Positions 4,165 through 61,146 of a stretch of DNA of 64,000 nucleotides are shown here, piece by piece. A program made the translations under genes and the position numbers. The notes beneath the pieces were generated by a model that was given only the letters and a program-made list of their open reading frames with translations, ran no database searches and was not told where the DNA came from. Source of the stretch: Solirubrobacterales bacterium (GTDB taxonomy: Bacteria > Actinomycetota > Thermoleophilia > Solirubrobacterales > JACPNS01); assembly GCA_047605325.1 (NCBI GenBank), contig JASGFX010000008.1, positions 6,100-70,099 on the forward strand. The letters are read 5' to 3'. Position 1 is the stretch's first letter, and every line of letters begins with the position of its first letter.

Positions 4165-6144
4165 CTACCAGTAGACGCCGCGCATCACGTGCGCGAAGGC
4201 GATCGCCTCGGGGGTGATCTGATCACGGCTGCCCGCGGTGCCCTTGGCCGCCGCGCTCTCCGGGAAGAGGTTGTAGGCGGTGCCGAGGATGCGGTCTGCG
4301 AGCTCGGGTGAGACCGCGTGGATCACTTCGCCGGTGCGGCCGAGGTTGGTGGTGACCTTTCTCGGCGTTCCGATCATGCCCTTGATCACGAGGTCGCTCG
4401 CCTCGTGCGGGGTGATCATCGGGAAGGCCTTGTAGATCGTGGTCGGCGCCGTCATCGGCGTCTTGACCAACGGCATATACACGGTGGTGAAGATCACGCC
4501 ATCGCCGATCACCTCGGGCTGGGCGCAGCGGCTGAAGGCGTCGAGCGCAGACTTGCTGGCCACGTACGCGGAGAAGCGTGGCGGGTAGGCCTGGGCGCCG
4601 ATCGAAGAGATGTTGATGATTCGGCCGTACTTGCGGGCGCGCATGCCCGGAAGCACCGACATGATCATGCGCAGTGCTCCGAAGTAGTTCAACTGCATCG
4701 TGCGCTCGAAGTCGTGGAAGCGGTCGGCGCTGCTGGTGAGCGAGCGTCGGATCGAGCGGCCAGCATTGTTGACGAGGATGTCGATACGGCCGTGCTCGGC
4801 GAGGATGTCGTCGATCACGCGCTCGCAGTCCTTGACGTCGGAGAGGTCTGCGGTGAACACGTCGGCCTCGCCGCCGGCGTCGACGATCTCATCTCGGATC
4901 ACGTCGAGTTTCGACTTGGTGCGCGCGACGAGGATCACCGTGGCGCCGGCGCGGCCGATGCGATGGGCGACGACTTCGCCGATACCGCTGGATGCGCCGG
5001 TGATCACGACGACCTTGCCGTTGACCGACCGCTTGAGTTTGCGGTTCTCGGTCGCGGCCTCGCTGAAGTTGCGCTCCCAGTAGTCCCAGAGAGTCTTGGC
5101 GTACTGCTCGAGCGGCGGCACGTGCAGGCCGCTGCCCTCGAGCTCCTTGAGCGTCTCGGTGCAGTCGAAGCGGGTCGGGTTGTCGAGGTAGGCGACGAAC
5201 TGCTCGGGCAGGCCGATCGCCTTGACGATCTCCTTGGAGACGAGCCTGGCCGCTGGATTCAGCTCGCTGGCCTTGAGCAGCAGGCGTGGGGTCGACTGGA
5301 TCAGCGGGTTGCTCGTGCGCAGGCTGAAGGCCGGGGCGCCGGCCGCGCGCGCAAAGATCGAGATCGCCTCACCGATGCTTGGCGGGTAGGGGTCGACGAG
5401 GTGAAAGGCGCGGCCGTCGAGGCCGTCCTTGTGCATCAGGAAGTCGAGGGCGCCGGCGACGAAGTCGACCGGAACCATGTTGCCCTTGCCGCCGGTGATT
5501 CCCGGGGTGGGGAGCCAGGCGGGGAGGCGGTCACCCGCGCGCTTGATCCACTTGAAGAGCAGGTATGGGCCGTCGATCTTGTCGATTGCGCCGGTGCGGC
5601 TGTCGCCGACGACGACGGCCGGGCGGTAGACGCGCCAAGGACCAGAGATTTCGTCGCGAACGATCTGCTCGGACTCGAACTTCGTGCGGTCGTAGGGAAA
5701 CTCGAGCTGCTGACCGGCGTCGAACATGTCCTCGCGGAAGACACCGTTGTAGCGACCGGCGATCGCGATCGAGCTGACGAGGTGGAAGGTCGCGTGGTCG
5801 AGCGAGTTTGCGAGGCGCACCGCGTTGATCGTGCCGCCGACATTGATCTCGCGGTTCTGCTGGTCAGAGGCCGTGATGTCGTAGATCGCCCCGAGGTGGA
5901 GAAAGTGGTCGACGTTCTTGATCCGTTCGCGATCGGCCTGCGAGAGGCCGAGGTGCGGTTCGGTCAGATCGCCGGTGACCTGGACGATGCGGCCCTTCGG
6001 TGCGCCGAGGCGCTCGACGATTGCGTCCATGCGCTCCTTCGACTGCGGGCGCACGAGCACGTAGATCCTGCCCTTGCGCTCGAGCAGGCGCTCAAGGACG
6101 TAACGACCAATGAATCCTGTACCGCCGGTTACGAAGTACGACAA
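4165..6144 (-). CDS. Fused fatty acyl-CoA reductase: N-terminal NAD-dependent thioester-reductase/epimerase domain plus C-terminal SDR domain (mycobacterial AcrA1/FcrA-like architecture)
   Basis: 659 aa. The N-terminus has TGGTGFIGRYVLERLL. The C-terminal half has a second Rossmann motif TGASSGIGEVVA and the SDR catalytic YxxxK (YVASK). Confidence 0.7.
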   Translation of the reverse strand: MSYFVTGGTGFIGRYVLERLLERKGRIYVLVRPQSKERMDAIVERLGAPKGRIVQVTGDLTEPHLGLSQADRERIKNVDHFLHLGAIYDITASDQQNREINVGGTINAVRLANSLDHATFHLVSSIAIAGRYNGVFREDMFDAGQQLEFPYDRTKFESEQIVRDEISGPWRVYRPAVVVGDSRTGAIDKIDGPYLLFKWIKRAGDRLPAWLPTPGITGGKGNMVPVDFVAGALDFLMHKDGLDGRAFHLVDPYPPSIGEAISIFARAAGAPAFSLRTSNPLIQSTPRLLLKASELNPAARLVSKEIVKAIGLPEQFVAYLDNPTRFDCTETLKELEGSGLHVPPLEQYAKTLWDYWERNFSEAATENRKLKRSVNGKVVVITGASSGIGEVVAHRIGRAGATVILVARTKSKLDVIRDEIVDAGGEADVFTADLSDVKDCERVIDDILAEHGRIDILVNNAGRSIRRSLTSSADRFHDFERTMQLNYFGALRMIMSVLPGMRARKYGRIINISSIGAQAYPPRFSAYVASKSALDAFSRCAQPEVIGDGVIFTTVYMPLVKTPMTAPTTIYKAFPMITPHEASDLVIKGMIGTPRKVTTNLGRTGEVIHAVSPELADRILGTAYNLFPESAAAKGTAGSRDQITPEAIAFAHVMRGVYW

Positions 6145-11332: not shown

Positions 11333-11654
11333 TTGCGTCGGTTATCGGATCCCGGGAGGGGCGCCGGCCACGGGGGTTCTGGCGAGCGGGCCCACGGGGT
11401 CCGAGGGTGAAGTCGCGAGGTGCCTGCCTGGCAGCGCGACATATTTCAAATTGTGTGACGCGGATGCCTCGGACCGTCCGACGATGGCTGAAAACCGATG
11501 TCGATCGGGGGCTCTTCCTCGGTCCGCAAGCGGCGGGGGAGCCGCTGCTGCGAGGTTACCCGATCGTATTGCGAACTAATCAGTATTTCGAACACCCGTT
11601 TAGGGTATGGAACCCAGCCGGAAGCTGGGTCCTCTAGGTGCTCTGAAAGAGGAA

Positions 11655-11889
11655 AACATCGGGGCGCCCAGATTTGAACTGGGGACCTCACCGACCCGAT
11701 CCGGCGCAGGGCGCTTCAGCGCGCACACTGCAAGCCAGAAGAGAAGAAGAACATCGGGGCGCCCAGATTTGAACTGGGGACCTCACCGACCCGATCCGGC
11801 GCAGGGCGCTTCAGCGCGCACACTGCAAGCCAGAAGAGAAGAAGAACATCGGGGCGCCCAGATTTGAACTGGGGACCTCACCGACCCGA
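11655..11889 (-). repeat. Tandem 95-bp repeat: two identical units plus a partial third. Each starts with 2 nt of flank plus the 3'-terminal 41 nt of tRNA-Pro
   Basis: Units 11655..11749 and 11750..11844 read identical by eye. The shared core CATCGGGGCGCCCAGATTTGAACTGGGGACCTCACCGACCCGA recurs at 11657, 11752 and 11847 (period 95). The third copy is the 3' part of the intact tRNA. Confidence 0.9.
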
Positions 11890-11922
11890 ACGGTGCGCGC
11901 TACCAGGCTGCGCCACGCCCCG
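11849..11922 (-). tRNA. tRNA-Pro (anticodon CGG), no encoded CCA
   Basis: Manual cloverleaf on the minus strand: CGGGGCG-UG-GCGC-AGCCUGGUA-GCGC-G-CACCG-UUCGGGU-CGGUG-AGGUC-CCCAG-UUCAAAU-CUGGG-CGCCCCG-A. This is 74 nt with all stems Watson-Crick paired. Confidence 0.92.
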
Positions 11923-11945
11923 AATGCGCGGGGATTATCGCAGAC

Positions 11946-19357: not shown

Positions 19358-20374
19358 ATGCAGCCGCCGGAGACTCTTGTTCGCGAAGACGACCACTCGT
19401 TGACCGGTGACGCCAGTTCGATGCGCGAGGCGCCCCGCGATTCCGGGCCTGCGCTTGAGCTCGAACACACGAGCCGCGCGCACATGATCGGCACCCTTCT
19501 CGTGGTCGTGCTGCCGTTCCTGGCTTTTCTGCTGGCGATCGTGCTGCTGTGGGAGACCGCGGCCGTCGGCCCGATCGACATCGGACTGTTGATCGCCATG
19601 CACGTCGTCGCCGGCCTCGGGATCACGGTCGGCTTTCACCGTATGCTCACGCACCGCAGCTTCGAGGCCAAGCCATGGGTGCGCGGAATGTTCACCGCCT
19701 TTGGGTCTCTCGCGATCGAGGGGCGCCCGGTGCACTGGGTCGCCGATCATCGTCGCCATCACGCCTTCGCCGATGAGGACGGCGATCCGCACAGTCCGCA
19801 TGTCGACGATCACGGTGAGGACTACGAGGGCTTCTGGGGTGCGGTACGCGGTGCGTTCCATGCGCACATGGGCTGGTTCTTCTCCGAAGGGCAGACACCG
19901 GCCGCGCGCTTTGCGCCCGATCTTCTGAAGGATCGCGTCGTGATGGCGATCGACCGCCAGTTCGGCTGGTTCGTCGTGCTTGCGCTGGTGATCCCAGGCG
20001 CGCTCGGCTTCCTGCTGACCGGCGGTTCATGGTGGGGCGCGCTGACCGGGATGTTCTGGGGCGGCGCAGTGCGCATCTTCATCACCCACCACGTGACCTG
20101 GTCGGTCAACTCGATCTGCCACATGTTCGGCCGCCGCCCGTTCGAGAGCGGCGATCTTTCCACGAACAACTGGGTGCTCGCGATCCCCACGCTGGGCGAG
20201 GCCTGGCACCACAACCACCACGCCTTTCCGACCTCGGCCTTCCACGGCTTGAAGCGCTGGCAGAAGGCGATGGATCCCTCGGGCTGGGTCGTGTGGACGC
20301 TCGAGAAGACCGGGCTGGCCTGGAACGTGAAGCGGGTTTCCGAGGATCAGATGGCGGCGAAGGTTCGGGCTTAG
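19358..20374 (+). CDS. Membrane fatty acid (acyl-CoA/acyl-lipid delta-9 type) desaturase
   Basis: Three His boxes: HRMLTHRSF, HRRHHAFAD and HHNHHAFP. Confidence 0.85.
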   Translation: MQPPETLVREDDHSLTGDASSMREAPRDSGPALELEHTSRAHMIGTLLVVVLPFLAFLLAIVLLWETAAVGPIDIGLLIAMHVVAGLGITVGFHRMLTHRSFEAKPWVRGMFTAFGSLAIEGRPVHWVADHRRHHAFADEDGDPHSPHVDDHGEDYEGFWGAVRGAFHAHMGWFFSEGQTPAARFAPDLLKDRVVMAIDRQFGWFVVLALVIPGALGFLLTGGSWWGALTGMFWGGAVRIFITHHVTWSVNSICHMFGRRPFESGDLSTNNWVLAIPTLGEAWHHNHHAFPTSAFHGLKRWQKAMDPSGWVVWTLEKTGLAWNVKRVSEDQMAAKVRA

Positions 20375-20474
20375 TCGGGTGGGCTGACTGCCGTCGTGGG
20401 CGGTTGGCTTCGGGCTTCTGCTGGTGGAGTGCGGGCGGCTTCGCCGCCGGCGATGACGGACGAGGCCGCGCCGC

Positions 20475-20560
20475 GCGGTTGGCGTAGGCAAGCGGGAAAT
20501 CTTCCAAGGTCTCTCCCGTCGGGAGAGACCTTGGAGCAAAAGGCCCTTACCCAAGCGGGA
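20475..20560. repeat. Palindromic repeat element, copy A (degenerate), also a likely terminator of the desaturase gene
   Basis: 15-bp perfect stem TCCAAGGTCTCTCCC-gtc-GGGAGAGACCTTGGA (20503..20535). The left flank is homologous to copy B. 9-bp direct repeats CAAGCGGGA occur at 20489 and 20552. Confidence 0.8.
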
Positions 20561-20601
20561 CCCCTGGTCAAATCCAACCCTTGACAACGTCGTCCCCATA
20601 T

Positions 20602-20617
20602 GCGAACATACGTTCGT
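20602..20617. promoter_or_regulatory. LexA (SOS) box upstream of / overlapping the imuB start
   Basis: gCGAAC-ATAC-GTTCGt matches the actinobacterial consensus TCGAAC-N4-GTTCGA. A TTGACA -35-like hexamer lies at 20581..20586. Confidence 0.75.
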
Positions 20618-22094
20618 GTCTGTTGTCTGCGTCATGCTGCCCCGCTTCGAGCTTCTCGTTGCTGCCGCTCCGTCCGCCGCTGGGCGGGATGTGCGCGAGG
20701 CGCTGATGCGCGAGCCGATCGCGCTCGGGCCGCTGCCCGGCGGCCGGCCGGTGCTCGGGCAGGTCTCGGCGGCGGCCGAGGCGTTCGCCGTCACGCCGGG
20801 GCTGGCGGTCGGTGAGGCCTTCGCGCGCTGCCCCGAGCTGAAGCTCGTCACGCCGGATCCGGCGCGCGCGGGCAGCGCGTGGGAGTGGGTGCTGCAGGCG
20901 CTCGAGCGACTCGGCGCCGAGGTCGAGAGCGATCCCGAGAAGCCGGGCACGCTGTTCTTCGAGTCGGCCGGGCTTGAGCCGTTGCACCGCGGCTTCGACG
21001 GGGTGATCGCCGCCGTGCGCGACGCGATCCGCCGACCGGTCAGGATCGGCGCCGGCCCGACCCGCTTCATCGCCCAGGCCGCCGCGCGCACTGCGCGTCC
21101 GCGCAAGCCGCGCGTGATCCGCACCGATCTCGACCGCCGCGACTTCCTCGCCGGCGCGCCGGTCTCGTGGCTGGCCATGCACTCGCCGGCCTGCGCCGAG
21201 CTCGCCGCCACGCTCACCAAGCTCGGCATCGACACGCTCGGCGAGTACGCCGTGCTGCGCCGCGCGCAGATCTCCGAGCGCTTCGGGCGCACCGGCTTGA
21301 CGGCGCGCGATCTGATCCACGGCGTCGAGCCGCCGCTGCGTCCGCGCCGGCCGGCCGAGCGGTTGCGCGAGTCGATCGAGCTGATCGACGACGCCGAACC
21401 ACAGGGCGCCGAGCGCGGCGCGCTGACCGCCGATCTCGAGCGCGCGCTGGAGCTGCTGATCGAGCGCCTGCTCGCCCGCCCCGAGCGCGCCGGGCGCACG
21501 CTCCGCGGATTCACGCTGGCGGCGCGCTTCACCGAGGGCGGATCATGGAGCACGCGCGGGATCATGCGCGTGCCGACGGCCGACCCCGCGCGGATCCGCA
21601 GCGTCGCGCTGCAGAAGCTCGCCGATCTGCCCGAGCCGGCCGCGTCGCTGGAGCTGACCGCCGATGGCTTCGGACCGCTCGACCACGAGACGGCGACGCT
21701 GTTCGGGGGCGACTCGCCCGAGGAGCGCCGCGCGCGCCTGAAGGCGGCCTCCGAGCAGGCGCGCCAGGCGGCCGGCTCGCCCGAGAAGGTCGCGCGGGTG
21801 ATGCGGCTCGACGAGGGCTCGCGCATCCCCGAGCGCCGCGCCGCGCTCTCGCCGGGGCCGGTGCCGCTGATGCAGCCGCGCCCGGCGATCGTCAGCACCG
21901 GCGAGGACGGCCGCCCCCTGCGCGTGAAGAACGCGCGCGTCGAGTCCGAGCGCGAGCGTTGGGTGGTGGAGGACGCCTGGTGGACGCCGCGCCCGGTGCG
22001 CCGGCGCTACTTCGAGCTGGTGCTCGAGGGCGGCGTCAGCACGGTCGTCTTCCAGGATCTGGCGAGTCGGCGCTGGTATCAGCAGGCGGCCTGA
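20616..22094 (+). CDS. imuB: ImuB, Y-family-polymerase-like subunit of the SOS mutasome
   Basis: The N-terminus MSVVCVMLPRFELLVAAA resembles ImuB N-termini as I recall them. Length is 492 aa, a LexA box lies upstream and dnaE2 is nearby. The alternative start ATG 20634 cannot be excluded. Confidence 0.8.
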   Translation: MSVVCVMLPRFELLVAAAPSAAGRDVREALMREPIALGPLPGGRPVLGQVSAAAEAFAVTPGLAVGEAFARCPELKLVTPDPARAGSAWEWVLQALERLGAEVESDPEKPGTLFFESAGLEPLHRGFDGVIAAVRDAIRRPVRIGAGPTRFIAQAAARTARPRKPRVIRTDLDRRDFLAGAPVSWLAMHSPACAELAATLTKLGIDTLGEYAVLRRAQISERFGRTGLTARDLIHGVEPPLRPRRPAERLRESIELIDDAEPQGAERGALTADLERALELLIERLLARPERAGRTLRGFTLAARFTEGGSWSTRGIMRVPTADPARIRSVALQKLADLPEPAASLELTADGFGPLDHETATLFGGDSPEERRARLKAASEQARQAAGSPEKVARVMRLDEGSRIPERRAALSPGPVPLMQPRPAIVSTGEDGRPLRVKNARVESERERWVVEDAWWTPRPVRRRYFELVLEGGVSTVVFQDLASRRWYQQAA

Positions 22095-22104
22095 TGGATC
22101 CCTC

Positions 22105-22176
22105 GTAGACAAGGGCCAGATCTTCCAACGGGCGTCCCCGCGGGGTCGCCCGTTGGAAGATCTGGCCCTTGTCTAC
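22105..22176. repeat. Palindromic repeat element, copy B: near-perfect 72-bp palindrome in the convergent gap imuB / CDF
   Basis: GTAGACAAGGGCCAGATCTTCCAACGGGCG-tCCCCGCGGGGt-CGCCCGTTGGAAGATCTGGCCCTTGTCTAC. The 30-bp arms are perfect and the centre is itself palindromic. Confidence 0.9.
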
Positions 22177-22211
22177 GCCAACCGCCCGCGGACCTTCGAT
22201 GCCCATCGCCG

Positions 22212-23150
22212 TCAGGGCGCGGCGGTCTCGTCGCGGTCGAGCTCGGTGTCGGCGAAAGAGAGCGGGTCCTCGAGCGGCTCGAGATGGGTGAAGACCGTGC
22301 AGGTCTCGAACAGCTCGCGCAGGTCGGCCTCGATGTTCTCGGCGGTGTCGTGGCCCTGCTGGACCGACCAGTCGCCGGGAACCAGCACGTGCAGGGAGAC
22401 GAACGCGCGGTGCGCCGCGCGACGGGTGCGCAGCGCGTGGAACGACAGGCCGAGTTCGCGGTATCCGTCGAGCACGGCCTCGACGCGTTCGATCTCTTCG
22501 GGCTCGAGTGCGTGGTCGAGCAGGCCCGAGAGCGCGCCGCGCACGAGCAGCGCGCCGGTCACGACGATGTTCACGGCGACGATCAGGGCGATCACCGGGT
22601 CGAGCCGGTCGATGCCGGTGATCGCGACGAGCGCGACGCCGAGGATCACGCCGACCGAGGTGACGACGTCTGTCATCAGGTGGCGGCCGTCGGCCGTCAA
22701 GGTCATCGACTGCTCTTCACGCCCGGCGCGGATCAGCAGACGCGCGACGAGCAGGTTGATCACGGTCGCGACACCCGTCACGGCGAGACCGAGGCCGACC
22801 GACTCCAGTGGGATCGGATTGATCAGTCGCTCGATCGCGGGTACCGCGATCACCAGCGCGGCGACGATGATCATCGCGCCTTCGGCGCCGGCCGAGAGGT
22901 AGTCGGCCTTGTCGTGTCCGTAGGCGTGGTCCTCGTCGGCGGGCTGGCCGGCCCAGCGGATCACGACCAGCGCCATCACGGCGGCGGCGAGATTGACCAG
23001 CGACTCGGCAGCGTCTGCGAGCAGTCCGATCGAGCCGGTGATCAGCCAAGCCGCGGTCTTCAGGGCAATCGTCAGAACCGCGGCGGCGATCGCCAGATAG
23101 ATCAGTCGCAGCAGGCGGTGCTGGCGGGCTGTCGGTTCCCCGGTCGGCAT
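22212..23150 (-). CDS. Cation diffusion facilitator (CzcD/FieF-like) divalent metal efflux transporter
   Basis: TM signature ALKTAAWLITGSIGLLADAAESLVNL, HAYGHDKADY, and a C-terminal cytoplasmic domain (FHALRTRRAAHRAFVSLHVLVPG). I chose the ATG at 23150 (MPTGEP). The longer ORF-track version would run over the dnaE2 LexA box. Confidence 0.85.
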   Translation of the reverse strand: MPTGEPTARQHRLLRLIYLAIAAAVLTIALKTAAWLITGSIGLLADAAESLVNLAAAVMALVVIRWAGQPADEDHAYGHDKADYLSAGAEGAMIIVAALVIAVPAIERLINPIPLESVGLGLAVTGVATVINLLVARLLIRAGREEQSMTLTADGRHLMTDVVTSVGVILGVALVAITGIDRLDPVIALIVAVNIVVTGALLVRGALSGLLDHALEPEEIERVEAVLDGYRELGLSFHALRTRRAAHRAFVSLHVLVPGDWSVQQGHDTAENIEADLRELFETCTVFTHLEPLEDPLSFADTELDRDETAAP

Positions 23151-23235
23151 GGGCGTAAAGACTACGGATGTATCGCGTGTTCGGCTAGCCATACGGCGAG
23201 GGGCGCCATACCGCGTCGATCCTCCTGCGGTAGAA

Positions 23236-23251
23236 TCGAACATATGTTCGT
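23236..23251. promoter_or_regulatory. LexA (SOS) box with adjoining -10 element upstream of dnaE2
   Basis: TCGAAC-ATAT-GTTCGt is immediately preceded by TAGAAT (23231..23236), 49 nt upstream of the dnaE2 ATG. Confidence 0.8.
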
Positions 23252-23299
23252 GTTCAAGCACGGTATCTGCACCAGCAGCGGTAGGGAAGCCGCCTGCAA

Positions 23300-26200
23300 A
23301 TGGCCGAATACGTAGAGCTCCACGCCCACAGCGCGTATTCGTTTCACGATGGTGTGAGTCAACCGCATGAGCTTGCGGCGGCTGCGGCCGAGCGCGGGTA
23401 TGCCGCCTTTGCGCTGACCGATCACGACGCGGTGCACGGCAGCATGGAGTTCGCCCACGCGGCTGCGCCGCTGGGGGTCAAGGCGATCCACGGCACCGAA
23501 CTGACGCTCGACCGGGGCCATCACGTCACGTTGATCGCCGAAAACCAGCGCGGCTGGTCGACGCTCTGCCGGCTGCTGACCGCGGCCCACGCGAGCACTC
23601 GGAGCGCAGACGCGCAGCGCTCGCCGCAGCAGCCGTGCGTCTCGCTCGACCAGTTGCTCGCGCACGCCGAGGAGGGCGCTGGGGGCCTGATCTGCCTCTC
23701 TGGCTGCGCGGCGCGCGGAGTCCTCGCGGCGCGAATCGCGCGCGGCGAGGTCGGCGCGGCCGAAGGGATCGCACGCCGGCTGCTCGGTGCGTTCGGCCGT
23801 TCGCACTTCCGGGTCGAACTCCAGCGACCGTTCCAGCGCCATGACCGTCAGCTGAACCAGGCGCTGGAGAGGATCGCCGAAAATCTGAAAGTTCCCACTG
23901 TCGCCACCGGCAATGTCCACGCCCACGCGCGGGAGCGTGCCGCGCTGCAGGATGTCTTCGTCGCCGTCAAACACAACGCTTCGCTCGACGAAACCGAGCC
24001 GCTGCGCCGCGGAAACAGCTCACATGTGCTGGTCGCTCCGCGCGAGATGACGCGGCGTTTTGCCGAGCACCCGCGTGCGGTCGCCGAGACGGCCGAGATC
24101 GCCCGGAGAATCGACTTCGACCTGACCGCAGACCTCGGCTATCGCTACCCCGGAGCCGAGGATCCCGAGCAGGGGAAGCGACTGCGCGCCGTCTGCGAGC
24201 AGCGGCTGATCGAACGCTACGGCGATTCCGGGGATCGCGAGGGGAGCAGCGTCGGTCGCCGACGGGTCGGCATCAAGGAAGCACGTGCGCGACTCGAACA
24301 AGAGCTTCGCGTCATCGAGAAGCTGCGCCTGCCCGGTTTCTTCCTGATCCATCACGACCTGCTCGAGATGGCGCGCGAGGTTGCGTGTGAGGTGCGCGGC
24401 AGCAGCGACGCCCGCGGGGTGTTACCGCCAGGGCGGGGGCGCGGCTCATCGGTCTCGTCGATCGTCTGTTACCTGACCGGCCTCTCGCACGTCGATCCGC
24501 TGGAGGCCAACCTCTGCATCGGCCGCTTTCTGCACGAGGAGATCACTTCGCTCCCCGACATCGATCTCGACTTCCCGCGCGACATCCGCCAGGAATTGAT
24601 CCCGCGTGTCCACGAGCGCTACGGGCATGAACGCTCGGCGTTGGTTGCGGCCTTCCCGACCTATCGCACGCGCGGTGCGCTGCGTGCGCTGGCCAAGGCG
24701 CTGGCGCTTCCCACTCCGGAGATAGAGCGCATCCTGCGCACCGCCGACCGCAGCTACGGCGAAGGACTGACAGAGCGCGTCGAGGCGGCGATCCGCGAGT
24801 CGCCGGCCGGTTCGCGGATGCTCGCCTCATCGCGCTGGCAGGCGCTGCTCAGGCTGCTGCCACAGATCCACCGCCTGCCGCGCGGACTCTCGCAGCACTC
24901 GGGCGGAATGGTGATCAGCACCGATCCGCTGATCGACGTCTGTCCGGTGGCGCCGGCCGCGATGCCGCGCAGGCAGATCGTGCAGTGGGACAAGGATTCG
25001 TGTTCGGACGCCGGCTTCGCGAAGATCGACCTGCTCGGCCTGGGGATGCTCAGCGCGGTTGAGCGCATCGTGGACCTGATCGACGGCGCGCGCGATGAGC
25101 GCGTCGATCTCTCGCGCATCCCGCTCGACGACCCCGAGACCTTCCGTCAGATCCGTGGCGCCGAGACGACCGGTGTATTCCAGATCGAGAGTCGCGCGCA
25201 GATGCAGATGCTCGTGCGCTCGCGGCCGGAGACGCTGGGTGACATCTTCATCCAGGTCGCGATCGTGCGCCCGGGACCGATCACCGGCGGCGCAGTGCAT
25301 CCCTATCTCGAGCGGCGCAAGTTGCTGCGCGCCGATCCGAGCTACAAGGTGCCGATGCCGCACCCGTTGCTCGAGGACGTGCTCGGTGAGACGCTCGGCG
25401 CGATTGTCTTCCAGGACCAGGTGATCGAGGTCGCACGGGCACTGGCCGACTTCTCGCCGTCGGAGGGCGAGGGGTTGCGGCGAGCGATGAGCCGCAAGCG
25501 CAGCAAGGAGGCGCTGGTCGCGTATCACCGGCGGTTCGTCGACGGTGCGGCGCAGAACGGAGTCAGTGAAGGGATCGCCGAGGAAGTGTTTGCGCAGGTC
25601 GTCGGATTTTCGGGATTCGGATTCCCGAAGGCTCATGCCGCGGCGTTCGGGCTGCTCGCCTACCAGACCTCGTGGCTGCGCGCCCATTACCCGGCCGAGT
25701 TTCTCTGCGGCCTCATGAACGAGCAGCCGATGGGTTTTTACCTGCCCGACGCTCTGGCCCACGAGGCTCAGCGCCGCGGCCTGACCGTACTGCCGCCGGA
25801 TGTCAACGCGAGTGGGGTGGAGTGTTCGGTCGAGTGGATCGAGTCTGATCGGGGTGAATCAAGCGTGTCGCCACAGGCAAGCCAAAAAGTGCCCCAACCT
25901 ACGTCTTTGGAAGGAGCTCAAAGACGTAAGTTGGGGCAGAGAACTGCTTTGGAATCGCGAAGCTCGATGGAGCTGGCTGTGCGCATCGGGCTGGGCTATG
26001 TGAAAGGCGCCAAGGAGACAGGGCTGAGATCTCTGGTCGCTGCTCGTGCCGAGGGTGGCCTGTTCAAAACCGTCGAGGATCTCGCCAGCCGTTCCGGCGC
26101 CGACGGTTCCACCCTCGAGAAGCTCGCCTGGGCCGGGGCCTGTGACGACGTCGGCACAGACGGAGCGGCGCGCACCAGGAGGGAGGCGCTGTGGCTGCTC

Positions 26201-26875
26201 GGTGCCGCGCCGGCCGGAGAGACGAAGGCCGATGAATCGGCCCAGCTCGCCCTGCCGATCGCACCGTTGCCGGCGCCGCGTCTGAACAAGCTCGGCGATT
26301 GGGAAGAGATGGTGGCCGACTACGGCGCGACCGGCCTCACGGTCGGCACGCATCCCCTCGAGCTTCTGCGCGAGGGGCTCGACGGACAGAACGTCCTCCA
26401 GACCACGGCGATCGACCGCGCGCCCGAGGGAACATTTGTGAAGGTCTCGGGTCTGGTCGTCGCGCGCCAACGTCCTGGCACGGCCAAGGGGGTGGTGTTC
26501 GTCCTGCTCGAAGATGAGGTCGGTGTCGTCAACCTGATCCTGCCGCCGCCGATCTACGTCAAGCACCGCGTCGTGGTGCGCAGCGAGCCGCTGCTGACGG
26601 CGAGCGGCAAGGTCGAGCGCCGCACCGGCGCGACCAACGTGATCGTCACCCACATCAGCCCGTTGCTGGGCAAGGACGTCGAAGATGCCGTGCGTCAGAT
26701 CCGCCGCCCGGCCACCAGCGAGCAGGACGTACGCGGCAAGATGGGTATCGACACCGACACCGCACTGGCCGCGATGAACGGTGATTTCGATGCGGCGCGC
26801 AAGGTTATGGGCGAAGCTGCCGACATAAGGGCTGTCGCTCCGGTCGGAATCAACTTCGGCCGCAAGGGGCGCTGA
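23300..26875 (+). CDS. dnaE2: Error-prone DNA polymerase III alpha-like subunit DnaE2 (ImuC)
   Basis: 1191 aa with an N-terminal PHP domain (YVELHAHSAYSFHDGVS), a polymerase core (GVFQIESRAQM, VAIVRPGP, FPKAHAAAFGLLAYQTSWL) and a C-terminal OB fold. LexA box upstream. Confidence 0.9.
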   Translation: MAEYVELHAHSAYSFHDGVSQPHELAAAAAERGYAAFALTDHDAVHGSMEFAHAAAPLGVKAIHGTELTLDRGHHVTLIAENQRGWSTLCRLLTAAHASTRSADAQRSPQQPCVSLDQLLAHAEEGAGGLICLSGCAARGVLAARIARGEVGAAEGIARRLLGAFGRSHFRVELQRPFQRHDRQLNQALERIAENLKVPTVATGNVHAHARERAALQDVFVAVKHNASLDETEPLRRGNSSHVLVAPREMTRRFAEHPRAVAETAEIARRIDFDLTADLGYRYPGAEDPEQGKRLRAVCEQRLIERYGDSGDREGSSVGRRRVGIKEARARLEQELRVIEKLRLPGFFLIHHDLLEMAREVACEVRGSSDARGVLPPGRGRGSSVSSIVCYLTGLSHVDPLEANLCIGRFLHEEITSLPDIDLDFPRDIRQELIPRVHERYGHERSALVAAFPTYRTRGALRALAKALALPTPEIERILRTADRSYGEGLTERVEAAIRESPAGSRMLASSRWQALLRLLPQIHRLPRGLSQHSGGMVISTDPLIDVCPVAPAAMPRRQIVQWDKDSCSDAGFAKIDLLGLGMLSAVERIVDLIDGARDERVDLSRIPLDDPETFRQIRGAETTGVFQIESRAQMQMLVRSRPETLGDIFIQVAIVRPGPITGGAVHPYLERRKLLRADPSYKVPMPHPLLEDVLGETLGAIVFQDQVIEVARALADFSPSEGEGLRRAMSRKRSKEALVAYHRRFVDGAAQNGVSEGIAEEVFAQVVGFSGFGFPKAHAAAFGLLAYQTSWLRAHYPAEFLCGLMNEQPMGFYLPDALAHEAQRRGLTVLPPDVNASGVECSVEWIESDRGESSVSPQASQKVPQPTSLEGAQRRKLGQRTALESRSSMELAVRIGLGYVKGAKETGLRSLVAARAEGGLFKTVEDLASRSGADGSTLEKLAWAGACDDVGTDGAARTRREALWLLGAAPAGETKADESAQLALPIAPLPAPRLNKLGDWEEMVADYGATGLTVGTHPLELLREGLDGQNVLQTTAIDRAPEGTFVKVSGLVVARQRPGTAKGVVFVLLEDEVGVVNLILPPPIYVKHRVVVRSEPLLTASGKVERRTGATNVIVTHISPLLGKDVEDAVRQIRRPATSEQDVRGKMGIDTDTALAAMNGDFDAARKVMGEAADIRAVAPVGINFGRKGR
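25891..25937. repeat. Palindromic repeat element, copy E, embedded in-frame in dnaE2
   Basis: GCCCCAACCTACGTCTTTG-gaaggagct-CAAAGACGTAAGTTGGGGC (19-bp arms, 1 mismatch). The flank CAAGCCAAAAAGTGCCCC resembles copy D. Locally about 50% G+C. Confidence 0.8.
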
Positions 26876-54363: not shown

Positions 54364-54403
54364 CGGCGGCACGCTAGCCGGGCGACCCGCGCAGCCAAGC
54401 CAA

Positions 54404-54448
54404 GTTCTTGGACAAACCTGTCCCTGAGGGAGAGGTTTGTCCAAGAAC
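54404..54448. repeat. Palindromic repeat element, copy C, in the bioF-bioD spacer
   Basis: GTTCTTGGACAAACCTgtccc-tga-gggagAGGTTTGTCCAAGAAC. The inner loop region resembles copy A. The right flank reads CCGTAGATAAGCGG on the opposite strand (compare CGTAGGCAAGCGG in A). Confidence 0.8.
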
Positions 54449-54589
54449 ACCGCTTATCTACGGGGCGCCCAAACTCATGAGCTTCGAACGAGCCTCGGGG
54501 ACCAACCCACCCATCACCGCCAGCGGCGAAGCCGCCCGCACTCAACAACCATCAGCCCGAGACCGACCGCCACTACGGCAGTCAACCGA

Positions 54590-60051: not shown

Positions 60052-60091
60052 TTCGATCGCGCGGCCGAATCCGCGCGTTCAAGCGAGAAAT

Positions 60092-60141
60092 CGCCCCGAT
60101 GAACGGTCATTGGGGCGCCCCAAAGGACACTCTTTGGGGCG
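60092..60141. terminator. Twin hairpin in the convergent gap (palindromic repeat element, copy D)
   Basis: CGCCCCGATGA-acgg-TCATTGGGGCG overlaps CGCCCCAAAG-gacact-CTTTGGGGCG. It is flanked by 10-bp direct repeats GTTCAAGCGA (60077 and 60153). Confidence 0.6.
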
Positions 60142-60178
60142 GGAAAGCGCTTGTTCAAGCGATCCCGCGCCCGCGCGT

Positions 60179-61110: not shown

Positions 61111-61146
61111 AAAAAAGCCCTCCCGCGGCTTGCGGAAGGGCTTTTT
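61111..61146 (-). terminator. Rho-independent terminator downstream of the SDR gene, potentially bidirectional
   Basis: AAAAAA-GCCCTCCCGC-ggctt-GCGGAAGGGC-TTTTT: a GC-rich stem flanked by A and T runs. Confidence 0.75.

Follow-up and report, generated by a model that had tools for sequence, protein, structure and literature searches.

A probable REPIN-like family of palindromic repeats around imuB in a Solirubrobacterales genome, with a link to RAYT-type transposase genes

In a 64,000-nucleotide stretch of a Solirubrobacterales metagenome-assembled genome (MAG; assembly GCA_047605325.1, contig JASGFX010000008.1, positions 6,100 to 70,099 of the forward strand; hereafter the window), the gene imuB lies between two inverted copies of a palindromic repeat. 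We find these copies, which we call A and B, to be related to a third element, C, in the bioF-bioD-bioA operon, and probably to a fourth, D. Together they probably represent a lineage-restricted family of non-autonomous elements similar to repetitive extragenic palindromic (REP) sequences and REPINs, cognate to a Solirubrobacterales clade of Y1/HUH proteins of the REP-associated tyrosine transposase (RAYT) type, which resemble TnpA_REP. The family unit is a palindrome of approximately 74-90 nucleotides (nt) with the motif CGTAG-RY-AAG, kept to a varying extent, at its two feet; copies in the window optionally carry a non-coding 5' module of approximately 100 nt. The copies are homologous and occupy unrelated intergenic sites, and in three other genomes, at two different loci, they overlap or flank a RAYT-like gene. 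The original prediction, made from the letters of the window, had described a dispersed family resembling REPs or miniature inverted-repeat transposable elements (MITEs) rather than independently evolved terminators. The homologous copies at unrelated loci, the absence of B and C from relatives and the association with RAYT-like genes all bear this out.

In Table 1, we list the elements with their parts and the genes around them. Oriented with the 5' module first, A, B and C each start directly behind the stop codon of the co-oriented upstream gene (TAG of the desaturase gene, TGA of the CDF gene, TGA of bioF). A and B had been recognized by a match of 29 in 35 positions between 20475-20509 and the reverse complement of 22151-22185. 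The count is correct, and the segment 20472-20507 is 83% identical to the reverse complement of 22153-22188 over 36 nt. The similarity persists under alignment statistics: the best ungapped local score between the two spacers that flank imuB is 18, compared with a mean of 8.5 (sd 1.1, maximum 13) for dinucleotide-shuffled spacers, and none of 2000 shuffles reaches 18. B is, as described, a near-perfect palindrome, 74 nt long, with two 37-nt arms that are 97% complementary and abut without a spacer. The inner stem of A (20503-20535) is fully paired as well, 16 nt with 16 nt. A related module noted near 54404-54463 belongs to the third copy, C, whose palindrome (CCCGTAGATAAGCGG on the minus strand) has 39-nt arms that are 79% complementary and carries CGTAGATAAGCGG. 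A covariance model of the family, the check that the original prediction had named, was built from five copies. In the whole window it recovers exactly A (71 bits), B (100 bits) and C (64 bits) and nothing else, and it recovers copies in other genomes.

Table 1. Repeat elements of the window, their parts, and nearby genes and regulatory sites
Feature	Position	Strand	Remarks
Element A, composite	20375-20556	+	begins directly after the desaturase stop codon
A, 5' module	20382-20459	+	
A, head	20475-20482	+	GCGGTTGG
A, imperfect palindrome	20483-20556	+	
Element B	22098-22211	-	begins directly after the CDF stop codon (TGA)
B, 5' module	22178-22211	-	shortened to ~34 nt; includes head CCAACC/GGTTGG at 22178-22185
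B, palindrome	22104-22177	-	short tail to the imuB stop codon
Element C	54387-54589	-	begins directly after the bioF stop codon (TGA); inside the bioF-bioD-bioA operon
C, 5' module	54511-54587	-	
C, extra linker	54466-54510	-	
C, palindrome	54387-54465	-	
Element D, probable degenerate relative	60068-60169	-	two small hairpins, enclosed by GAACAAGCG and CGCTTGAAC as outer modules
In-frame palindrome of dnaE2	25890-25938	+	20-nt arms; within an insert of ~42 codons
Fatty-acid desaturase gene	19358-20374	+	stop codon TAG at 20372-20374
LexA (Cheo-type) box CGAACATACGTTCG, perfect	20603-20616	+	precedes imuB; kept in all relatives; outside element A
imuB, Y-family IMS domains	20616/20634-22094	+	resident and syntenic, not cargo
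CDF cation-efflux gene	22212-23261	-	stop codon at 22212-22214
Perfect Cheo-type LexA box before dnaE2	23237-23250		
dnaE2	23300-26875	+	

The repeat unit is larger than the original prediction described, and its parts differ in how well they are conserved. The 5' modules of A and C (20382-20459 against 54587-54511, minus strand) are 82% identical over 78 nt (E 9e-16) and hold a small hairpin, GGCGGC-TTC-GCCGCC in A; B retains only the proximal 34 nt or so. We rejected the module as a structured RNA, its fold alone being non-significant (z -1.65 and -0.94), and also as a coding remnant, because the alignment of A with C contains a 1-nt indel; we therefore take it to be non-coding. The palindromes of the window are 48-64% identical in pairwise comparison (A and B, 64%), and that of B is 81% identical to a copy in another genome (L038; loci of other genomes are given by such numbers). 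The description of conserved flanks and variable stems holds in a rough way: along the arm, mean pairwise identity is 0.83 in the head CGTAGRYAAG, 0.78 in the ATCTTCCA block and 0.77 at the tip, and the segments between these fall to 0.42-0.57. CGTAG itself is found in the left arm of A, both arms of B, the right arm of C, both arms of L038 and one arm of L110. Pairing is mostly retained, with changes on both sides at 11 of 35 pairs. Between A and C, whose 5' modules are so similar, the palindromes are only 53% identical, yet each of them still pairs with itself. The cause is either a much higher rate of change in the hairpins than in the flank, or an exchange of hairpins. The idea that the variable inner stems are nested insertions of other hairpins was rejected, as the arms align over their full length with scattered substitutions. 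Folded as RNA, A reaches -44 kcal/mol (z -4.2), B -73.9 (z -11.9) and C -54.6 (z -7.8). All full copies (A, B, C, L038, L110, L152, L153 and L154) fold at -35 to -74 kcal/mol, and every copy tested beats its shuffled controls, with z from about -4 to -12. All copies are intergenic or overlap only the 3' end of a gene.

The link to a transposase comes from loci of relatives anchored on bioF (L151-L153). In L152 (JAEYBE010000048, the contig of L038) and L153 (CAZRAA01), a gene for a 212 amino acid (aa) protein lies between the MBL-fold and acyltransferase genes, exactly where the window has D. This protein matches the Pfam domain Y1_Tnp (PF01797) at 27-28 bits, above the cutoff of 23, and a copy of the family (69-71 bits) overlaps the 3' end of its gene, supplying the last codons and the stop. 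Upstream of the gene are GGGCTTGTCACG and GGTCTTGTTTCGTTACG, motifs that resemble the tail of the right arm, like half-modules. The same motifs recur upstream of a 55%-identical homologue at a different locus in L154, where a related palindrome (28.8 bits) is located about 95 nt before the start codon of the homologue. The contig of L151, the closest relative, is broken off within a copy similar to B, at the locus where the window has D.

What kind of protein is this? An index of 5.8 billion proteins holds 35 close homologues. Solirubrobacterales is the taxon of the few for which the source names one, and two are called RayT by JGI. One homologue, P0261 (QM648_01700), is encoded in the MAG of the window itself, on another contig. 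The HUH motif (THFHL) and the motif YVHxNH are conserved across 33 homologues. A search of the PDB by sequence gave no match for the RAYT-like protein; the match came from comparison of folds alone. The AlphaFold (AF2) model of P0261 has a pLDDT of 91, and its top Foldseek match in the PDB is 4er8_A, the Escherichia coli TnpA_REP bound to a REP hairpin (E 1.3e-5), followed by the TnpA proteins of IS608, ISDra2 and IS200. Together, the conserved motifs, the Y1_Tnp match and this model indicate a transposase with a Y1/HUH fold that is closer to TnpA_REP than to the IS200 TnpA. A profile built on the clade detects 20,725 proteins at E <= 0.001, which makes the clade one branch of the large RayT/IS200-like superfamily.

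To see the same sites with and without elements, we used contigs of relatives that were reached by way of ImuB. The ImuB proteins of these relatives share 83-91% identity with that of the window, which is itself 100% identical to the NCBI protein QM648_04115 of a Solirubrobacterales MAG. In all relatives examined the order is desaturase, imuB, CDF, in some a Fic/MazE pair, dnaE2 and cheB, whether an element is present or not. At the junction of imuB and the CDF gene, where the window has a gap of 117 nt holding B, the two stop codons overlap as CTAG in L001, L002 and L005; L001, the closest by ImuB (91% identical), thus has no intergenic DNA at the B site. In L003 and L004 the junction holds an unrelated palindrome, (A)CTGCGCACCAAAGGTGCGCAG(T), in four copies (11490-11750) and one copy (4590-4620), respectively; since the two contigs are near-identical, the array is a polymorphism in its own right. 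At the same junction, the L007 contig ends in an apparent insertion sequence (IS). A search for the head motif in loci L001-L008 found nothing. On the other side of imuB, conservation of the promoter and LexA box begins at the -35 element, and the DNA farther upstream varies by lineage, with unrelated hairpins in L001 and L007 and an IS1595-type insertion in L003 and L005. At the C site, 227 nt separate bioF and bioD in the window, compared with 32, 9 and 10 nt in L151 (BioF 93% identical), L152 and L153. When aligned with these relatives, the window has about 215 nt more, a clean block that starts immediately behind the stop codon. The short gaps and the clean block at bioF-bioD, and the absence of B from the orthologous sites, show B and C to be insertions specific to the lineage of the window, B having entered a spacer that is hot for many elements. 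One of the checks proposed earlier was for target-site duplications, and at the C junction, compared with the empty sites, none is evident.

Are A and B the ends of one unit? The original prediction had suggested that the segment between them, with the LexA box, the promoter and the whole of imuB, is a cassette, mobile or invertible. The inverted arrangement of A and B, which share 28/33 to 30/36 nt, invites this explanation, as does the base composition of imuB, whose G+C content (GC) and third-position G+C (GC3), 0.76 and 0.94, exceed those of its neighbors (about 0.66-0.70 and 0.81-0.86). However, gene order, LexA box and promoter are kept in every relative examined, regardless of elements, and these relatives are without A and B. 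Nor does the bracketed segment behave as one insertion when synteny is compared: its flanking spacers contain different insertions in different lineages, and in L001 there is no intergenic DNA at all where B would be. A has a full 5' module and B a shortened one, their palindromes are only 64% identical, and no recombinase, transposase or integrase was found among the 50 open reading frames (ORFs) of the window that were scanned. The GC excess is present in L001 and L005 as well, so it is a property of the gene and not a cassette mark; the GC3 excess is missing there, so part of the imuB excess is specific to the lineage of the window. We consider a cassette very improbable, and the reading of the segment as an invertible switch was rejected. 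An integron cassette with attC sites was rejected too, since GTTGGCG does not fit GTTRRRY, the scanned ORFs include no integrase and imuB is syntenic. Rather, the spacers around the LexA-regulated genes imuB and dnaE2 are insertion hot spots in this clade. Given two such spacers next to imuB, A and B are independent insertions and the bracketing of imuB is coincidental.

Two further explanations accept a family of repeats and differ on how it came about. The elements might be non-mobile, cis-acting hairpins (factor-independent terminators, insulators or 3' stabilizers) that are under selection and spread by duplication or recombination, the Y1 link being incidental. All copies do occupy 3' untranslated regions (UTRs) or intercistronic sites, directly after stops or between convergent genes; their RNA folds are very stable, with pairing retained despite sequence change, and the copy number is low. 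On the other hand, no copy is followed by a U-tract, so a terminator scan leaves the copies uncalled, and an intrinsic (Rho-independent) terminator was rejected for A and B, neither of which is followed by a T-run. The genome uses canonical A-tract/T-tract terminators elsewhere, e.g., at 61112-61146. Moreover, the homology extends over 78 nt of unstructured flank, close relatives are without elements at the same sites, and the element is tied to a transposase gene in three genomes and at two loci. Such an origin seems unlikely to us. We think it somewhat less likely still that the elements depend on another enzyme or, as MITEs, on a conventional DDE insertion sequence, with the long palindrome formed by fused terminal inverted repeats. 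The palindromic, MITE-like shape would suit this origin, and in relatives the very spacers in question are where IS1595-family elements are active. Yet the clean C junction lacks a target-site duplication, the ends of the IS1595 elements of L003 and L005 bear no similarity to the family, and of the transposase genes found, none but the Y1/HUH gene touches a copy.

A REPIN-like family with a RAYT-type partner, which we favor, also has a number of observations to contend with. We scanned 185,579 GTDB-representative genomes with the pattern CGTAGRYAAGSGSN{3,4}TCTTSSA (the source MAG of the window is outside the scanned collections). There are 110 single matches, compared with approximately 140 estimated by chance, nearly all in coding DNA of unrelated taxa. 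Only two have hairpin context: L038, in a MAG labelled Actinomycetes, where the copy directly follows the stop codon of a fabI-like gene, and L110 (contig CAZRAA010000069, same MAG as L003), where it is upstream of miaB. No representative genome has more than one match. A stricter pattern in 241 million metagenome records gives 32 matches, all of them coding coincidences and mostly in one marine low-GC gene, and the covariance model finds no copy in approximately 140 kb of sequence from relatives once the RAYT locus is set aside. The low identity among the window palindromes excludes a recent burst from a single master copy. Covariation in the five MAFFT-aligned copies is only marginal (34-76 of 500 shuffles reach the observed value), because indels shift A and C out of register. 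GTAG does not form an unpaired tail but is base-paired at both feet, and in the copies next to the RAYT-like gene the left arm reads CGGAA in place of CGTAG; the palindrome is far longer than a classical REP of 20-40 nt, and its arms are not hairpins themselves. As for the protein, the best NCBIfam match of the 212-aa product is REP_Tyr_transpos at 22.7 bits, far below the cutoff of 80; QM648_01700 is only 57% identical to the element-associated RAYT; and the syntenic RAYT gene is missing from the window, where D stands alone at its locus. All of these count against the interpretation. The window has 3-4 copies in 64 kb, and a pattern scan of viral contigs gave no match. From the low identity of the window palindromes and the rarity elsewhere, the family appears to be low-copy, old and diversified rather than the product of a recent burst.

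How does the family compare with known systems? Rfam offers no match that reaches its gathering score, only sub-threshold miRNA-precursor models, as any long hairpin may give. The closest counterparts are REPINs, which in Pseudomonas fluorescens SBW25 have conserved inverted ends and a less conserved interior kept paired by compensatory changes, are extragenic and are associated with RAYTs (Bertels and Rainey 2011, PMC3116915). Our family shares with them a symmetric hairpin unit of about 70-110 nt, the conserved ends and variable pairing interior, the extragenic position, the association with a Y1/HUH RAYT and the expectation of no target-site duplication. In unit size it fits neither a REP (20-40 nt) nor a REPIN of two REPs and a spacer, being a single palindrome of 74-90 nt with abutting arms; overall length and conservation pattern do fit a REPIN. 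Unlike REPINs, its arms abut without a spacer and are not small palindromes themselves; its copy number is apparently units to tens, not hundreds, and copies in one genome share just 48-64% identity; two of the copies bring along a 5' module of about 100 nt; and its host belongs to the Thermoleophilia (Actinomycetota), not the Proteobacteria.

Where a copy has it, the GTAG at the foot of the hairpin, in a layout like a head-to-head dimer with GTAG outside, recalls GTAG-tagged REPs and REPtrons. In REPtrons and TIRtrons, the 3' end of a transposase gene is overlapped by the gene's own repeat (Di Nocera et al. 2013, PMC3733652), as it is in L152 and L153. Copies downstream of genes or between convergent genes, and a protein model that resembles TnpA_REP (Messing et al. 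2012, PDB 4ER8), are further points in common. The repeats of TIRtrons, too, occur in moderate numbers, and some of them are self-complementary (Di Nocera et al. 2013, PMC3733652). In contrast, classical REPs have stems of 5-13 bp and an unpaired GTAG tail, whereas the stem of our family is approximately 35 bp with the GTAG paired; and in our family CGGAA replaces CGTAG in the copies next to the RAYT-like gene, whose protein falls so far below the REP_Tyr_transpos cutoff. Miniature elements derived from IS200/IS605 (PATE-like) are similar in the HUH/Y1 transposase fold, the several hairpins, the lack of target duplication and a short fixed insertion context. Unlike these, the family shows no full-length IS with a tnpB partner and no two distinct sub-terminal end hairpins, and the best structural match is TnpA_REP.

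By analogy with TnpA_REP (Corneloup et al. 2021, PMC8266576) and IS608, the RAYT-like enzyme would recognize the element as a folded single strand, binding its hairpin and GTAG-type foot. Its HUH and Tyr residues would then catalyze cleavage and strand transfer and so move the element, by cut-and-paste or by copying, without a target-site duplication. The elements would have settled in very short spacers right behind stop codons because these are the only non-coding space where they are tolerated. Any effect on the host would be a side effect: transcripts of the desaturase, CDF, imuB and bioF genes would have highly stable hairpins in their 3' UTRs, which may act as barriers to read-through or as blocks to exonucleases. 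Such hairpins might plausibly insulate imuB from desaturase read-through or stabilize the bioF-bioD mRNA.

Literature searches returned no REP/REPIN-RAYT system described in Solirubrobacterales or Thermoleophilia; such systems have been studied almost entirely in Proteobacteria. It is possible, but we think doubtful, that the window shows an undescribed and still active REPIN-RAYT system of Thermoleophilia, in which composites of about 200 nt, each a 5' module joined to a long palindrome with GTAG feet, land precisely behind stop codons with no target duplication, interiors turn over much faster than flanks and still pair, and hairpins template mutation or repair near SOS mutasome genes. The last of these is what the contrast between palindromes and 5' modules of A and C, and a dnaE2 hairpin tip that differs between genomes (see below), would point to. 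If the low-copy and diversified family, with its very long perfect palindrome, clean insertion polymorphisms and divergent RAYT clade, is what we suppose, it would offer a point of comparison for how vertically inherited, "domesticated" transposon systems persist. The inverted repeats around imuB also serve as a warning against reading such an arrangement as a mobile mutasome cassette, and insertions into the hot-spot spacers at imuB and dnaE2 could alter read-through into SOS genes.

The original prediction had placed two more related modules, at 60073-60092 and inside dnaE2, and these fared differently. The former lies in D, which scores just 7.2 bits with the family model (60073-60092). Its neighbors are the acyltransferase and MBL genes, and in L152 and L153 the interval between those two genes holds the RAYT-like gene and a canonical copy; from this position and from short matches, D is probably a decayed copy of the A/B/C family. 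The hairpin in dnaE2 is real, but its match to the family model (9 bits) is no better than a hairpin in general would give, so it belongs to a different family. The insert that contains it is translated, in the helix-hairpin-helix (HhH) region, and measures about 42 aa in the window (25865-25960, codons ~855-897) and about 29 aa in L005 (15695-15790). It is missing from L001, a closer relative than L005. The outer stem GCCCCAACCTACGTCTT/AAGACGTAGGTTGGGGC is the same in the window and L005, and the apical hairpin is wholly different. This pattern implies that the L001 lineage lost the insert precisely, or else that one site received insertions repeatedly. As an in-frame palindrome in a replication and repair gene, translated as an extra loop, the insert resembles Rickettsia palindromic elements and intragenic REPs; many intragenic REPs have been noted in genes for replication and repair (Di Nocera et al. 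2013, PMC3733652). It differs from them in that a single site is known here and in that its motif order, CTAC-hairpin-GTAG, is the reverse of that in a canonical REP.

The spacers of the imuB region hold other features in relatives. Just upstream of the imuB LexA box, L003 (7139-9864) and L005 (7350-9810) carry a segment with an IS1595-family transposase, accompanied in L003 by a SocA/Panacea-domain gene; its inverted ends, GGCAACTATGTCATCAAGACACGTAC, replace the native -35 region. Upstream of imuB in L007 (9790-9960) are three tandem units with a conserved GGAATTTGCGCAWTTTGCGTG head, the first two each followed by a different perfect hairpin. These units are another repeat family of the clade with a conserved head and a variable hairpin. 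Between the CDF gene and dnaE2, a pair of genes with Fic and MazE-antitoxin domains is present in L001 (11004-11662) and L005 (12437-13089) and not in the window (22212-23299).

In the window, which has a G+C content of 66.6%, the convergent CDF gene stands between imuB and dnaE2, both of which have a perfect LexA box of their own, and there is no imuA' gene nearby. The -35 element of the imuB promoter, CTTGACA at about 20582, is found in all relatives and is outside element A. In the window, too, cheB follows dnaE2. A further LexA-like box with one mismatch (CGAACACCTATTCG, 2091-2104) is located beside a perfect 15-bp hairpin (2145-2179) in the spacer after a D-Ala-D-Ala carboxypeptidase gene. 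Finally, a tandem repeat at 11648-11889 has 2.6 copies of a 95-nt unit with 98% identity. The adjacent tRNA-Pro(CGG) gene (11848-11923, minus strand) contributes its 3' half to the unit, which also contains approximately 53 nt from downstream of that gene, and the repeat may be the footprint of repeated integration and excision at the tRNA gene, or of slippage.

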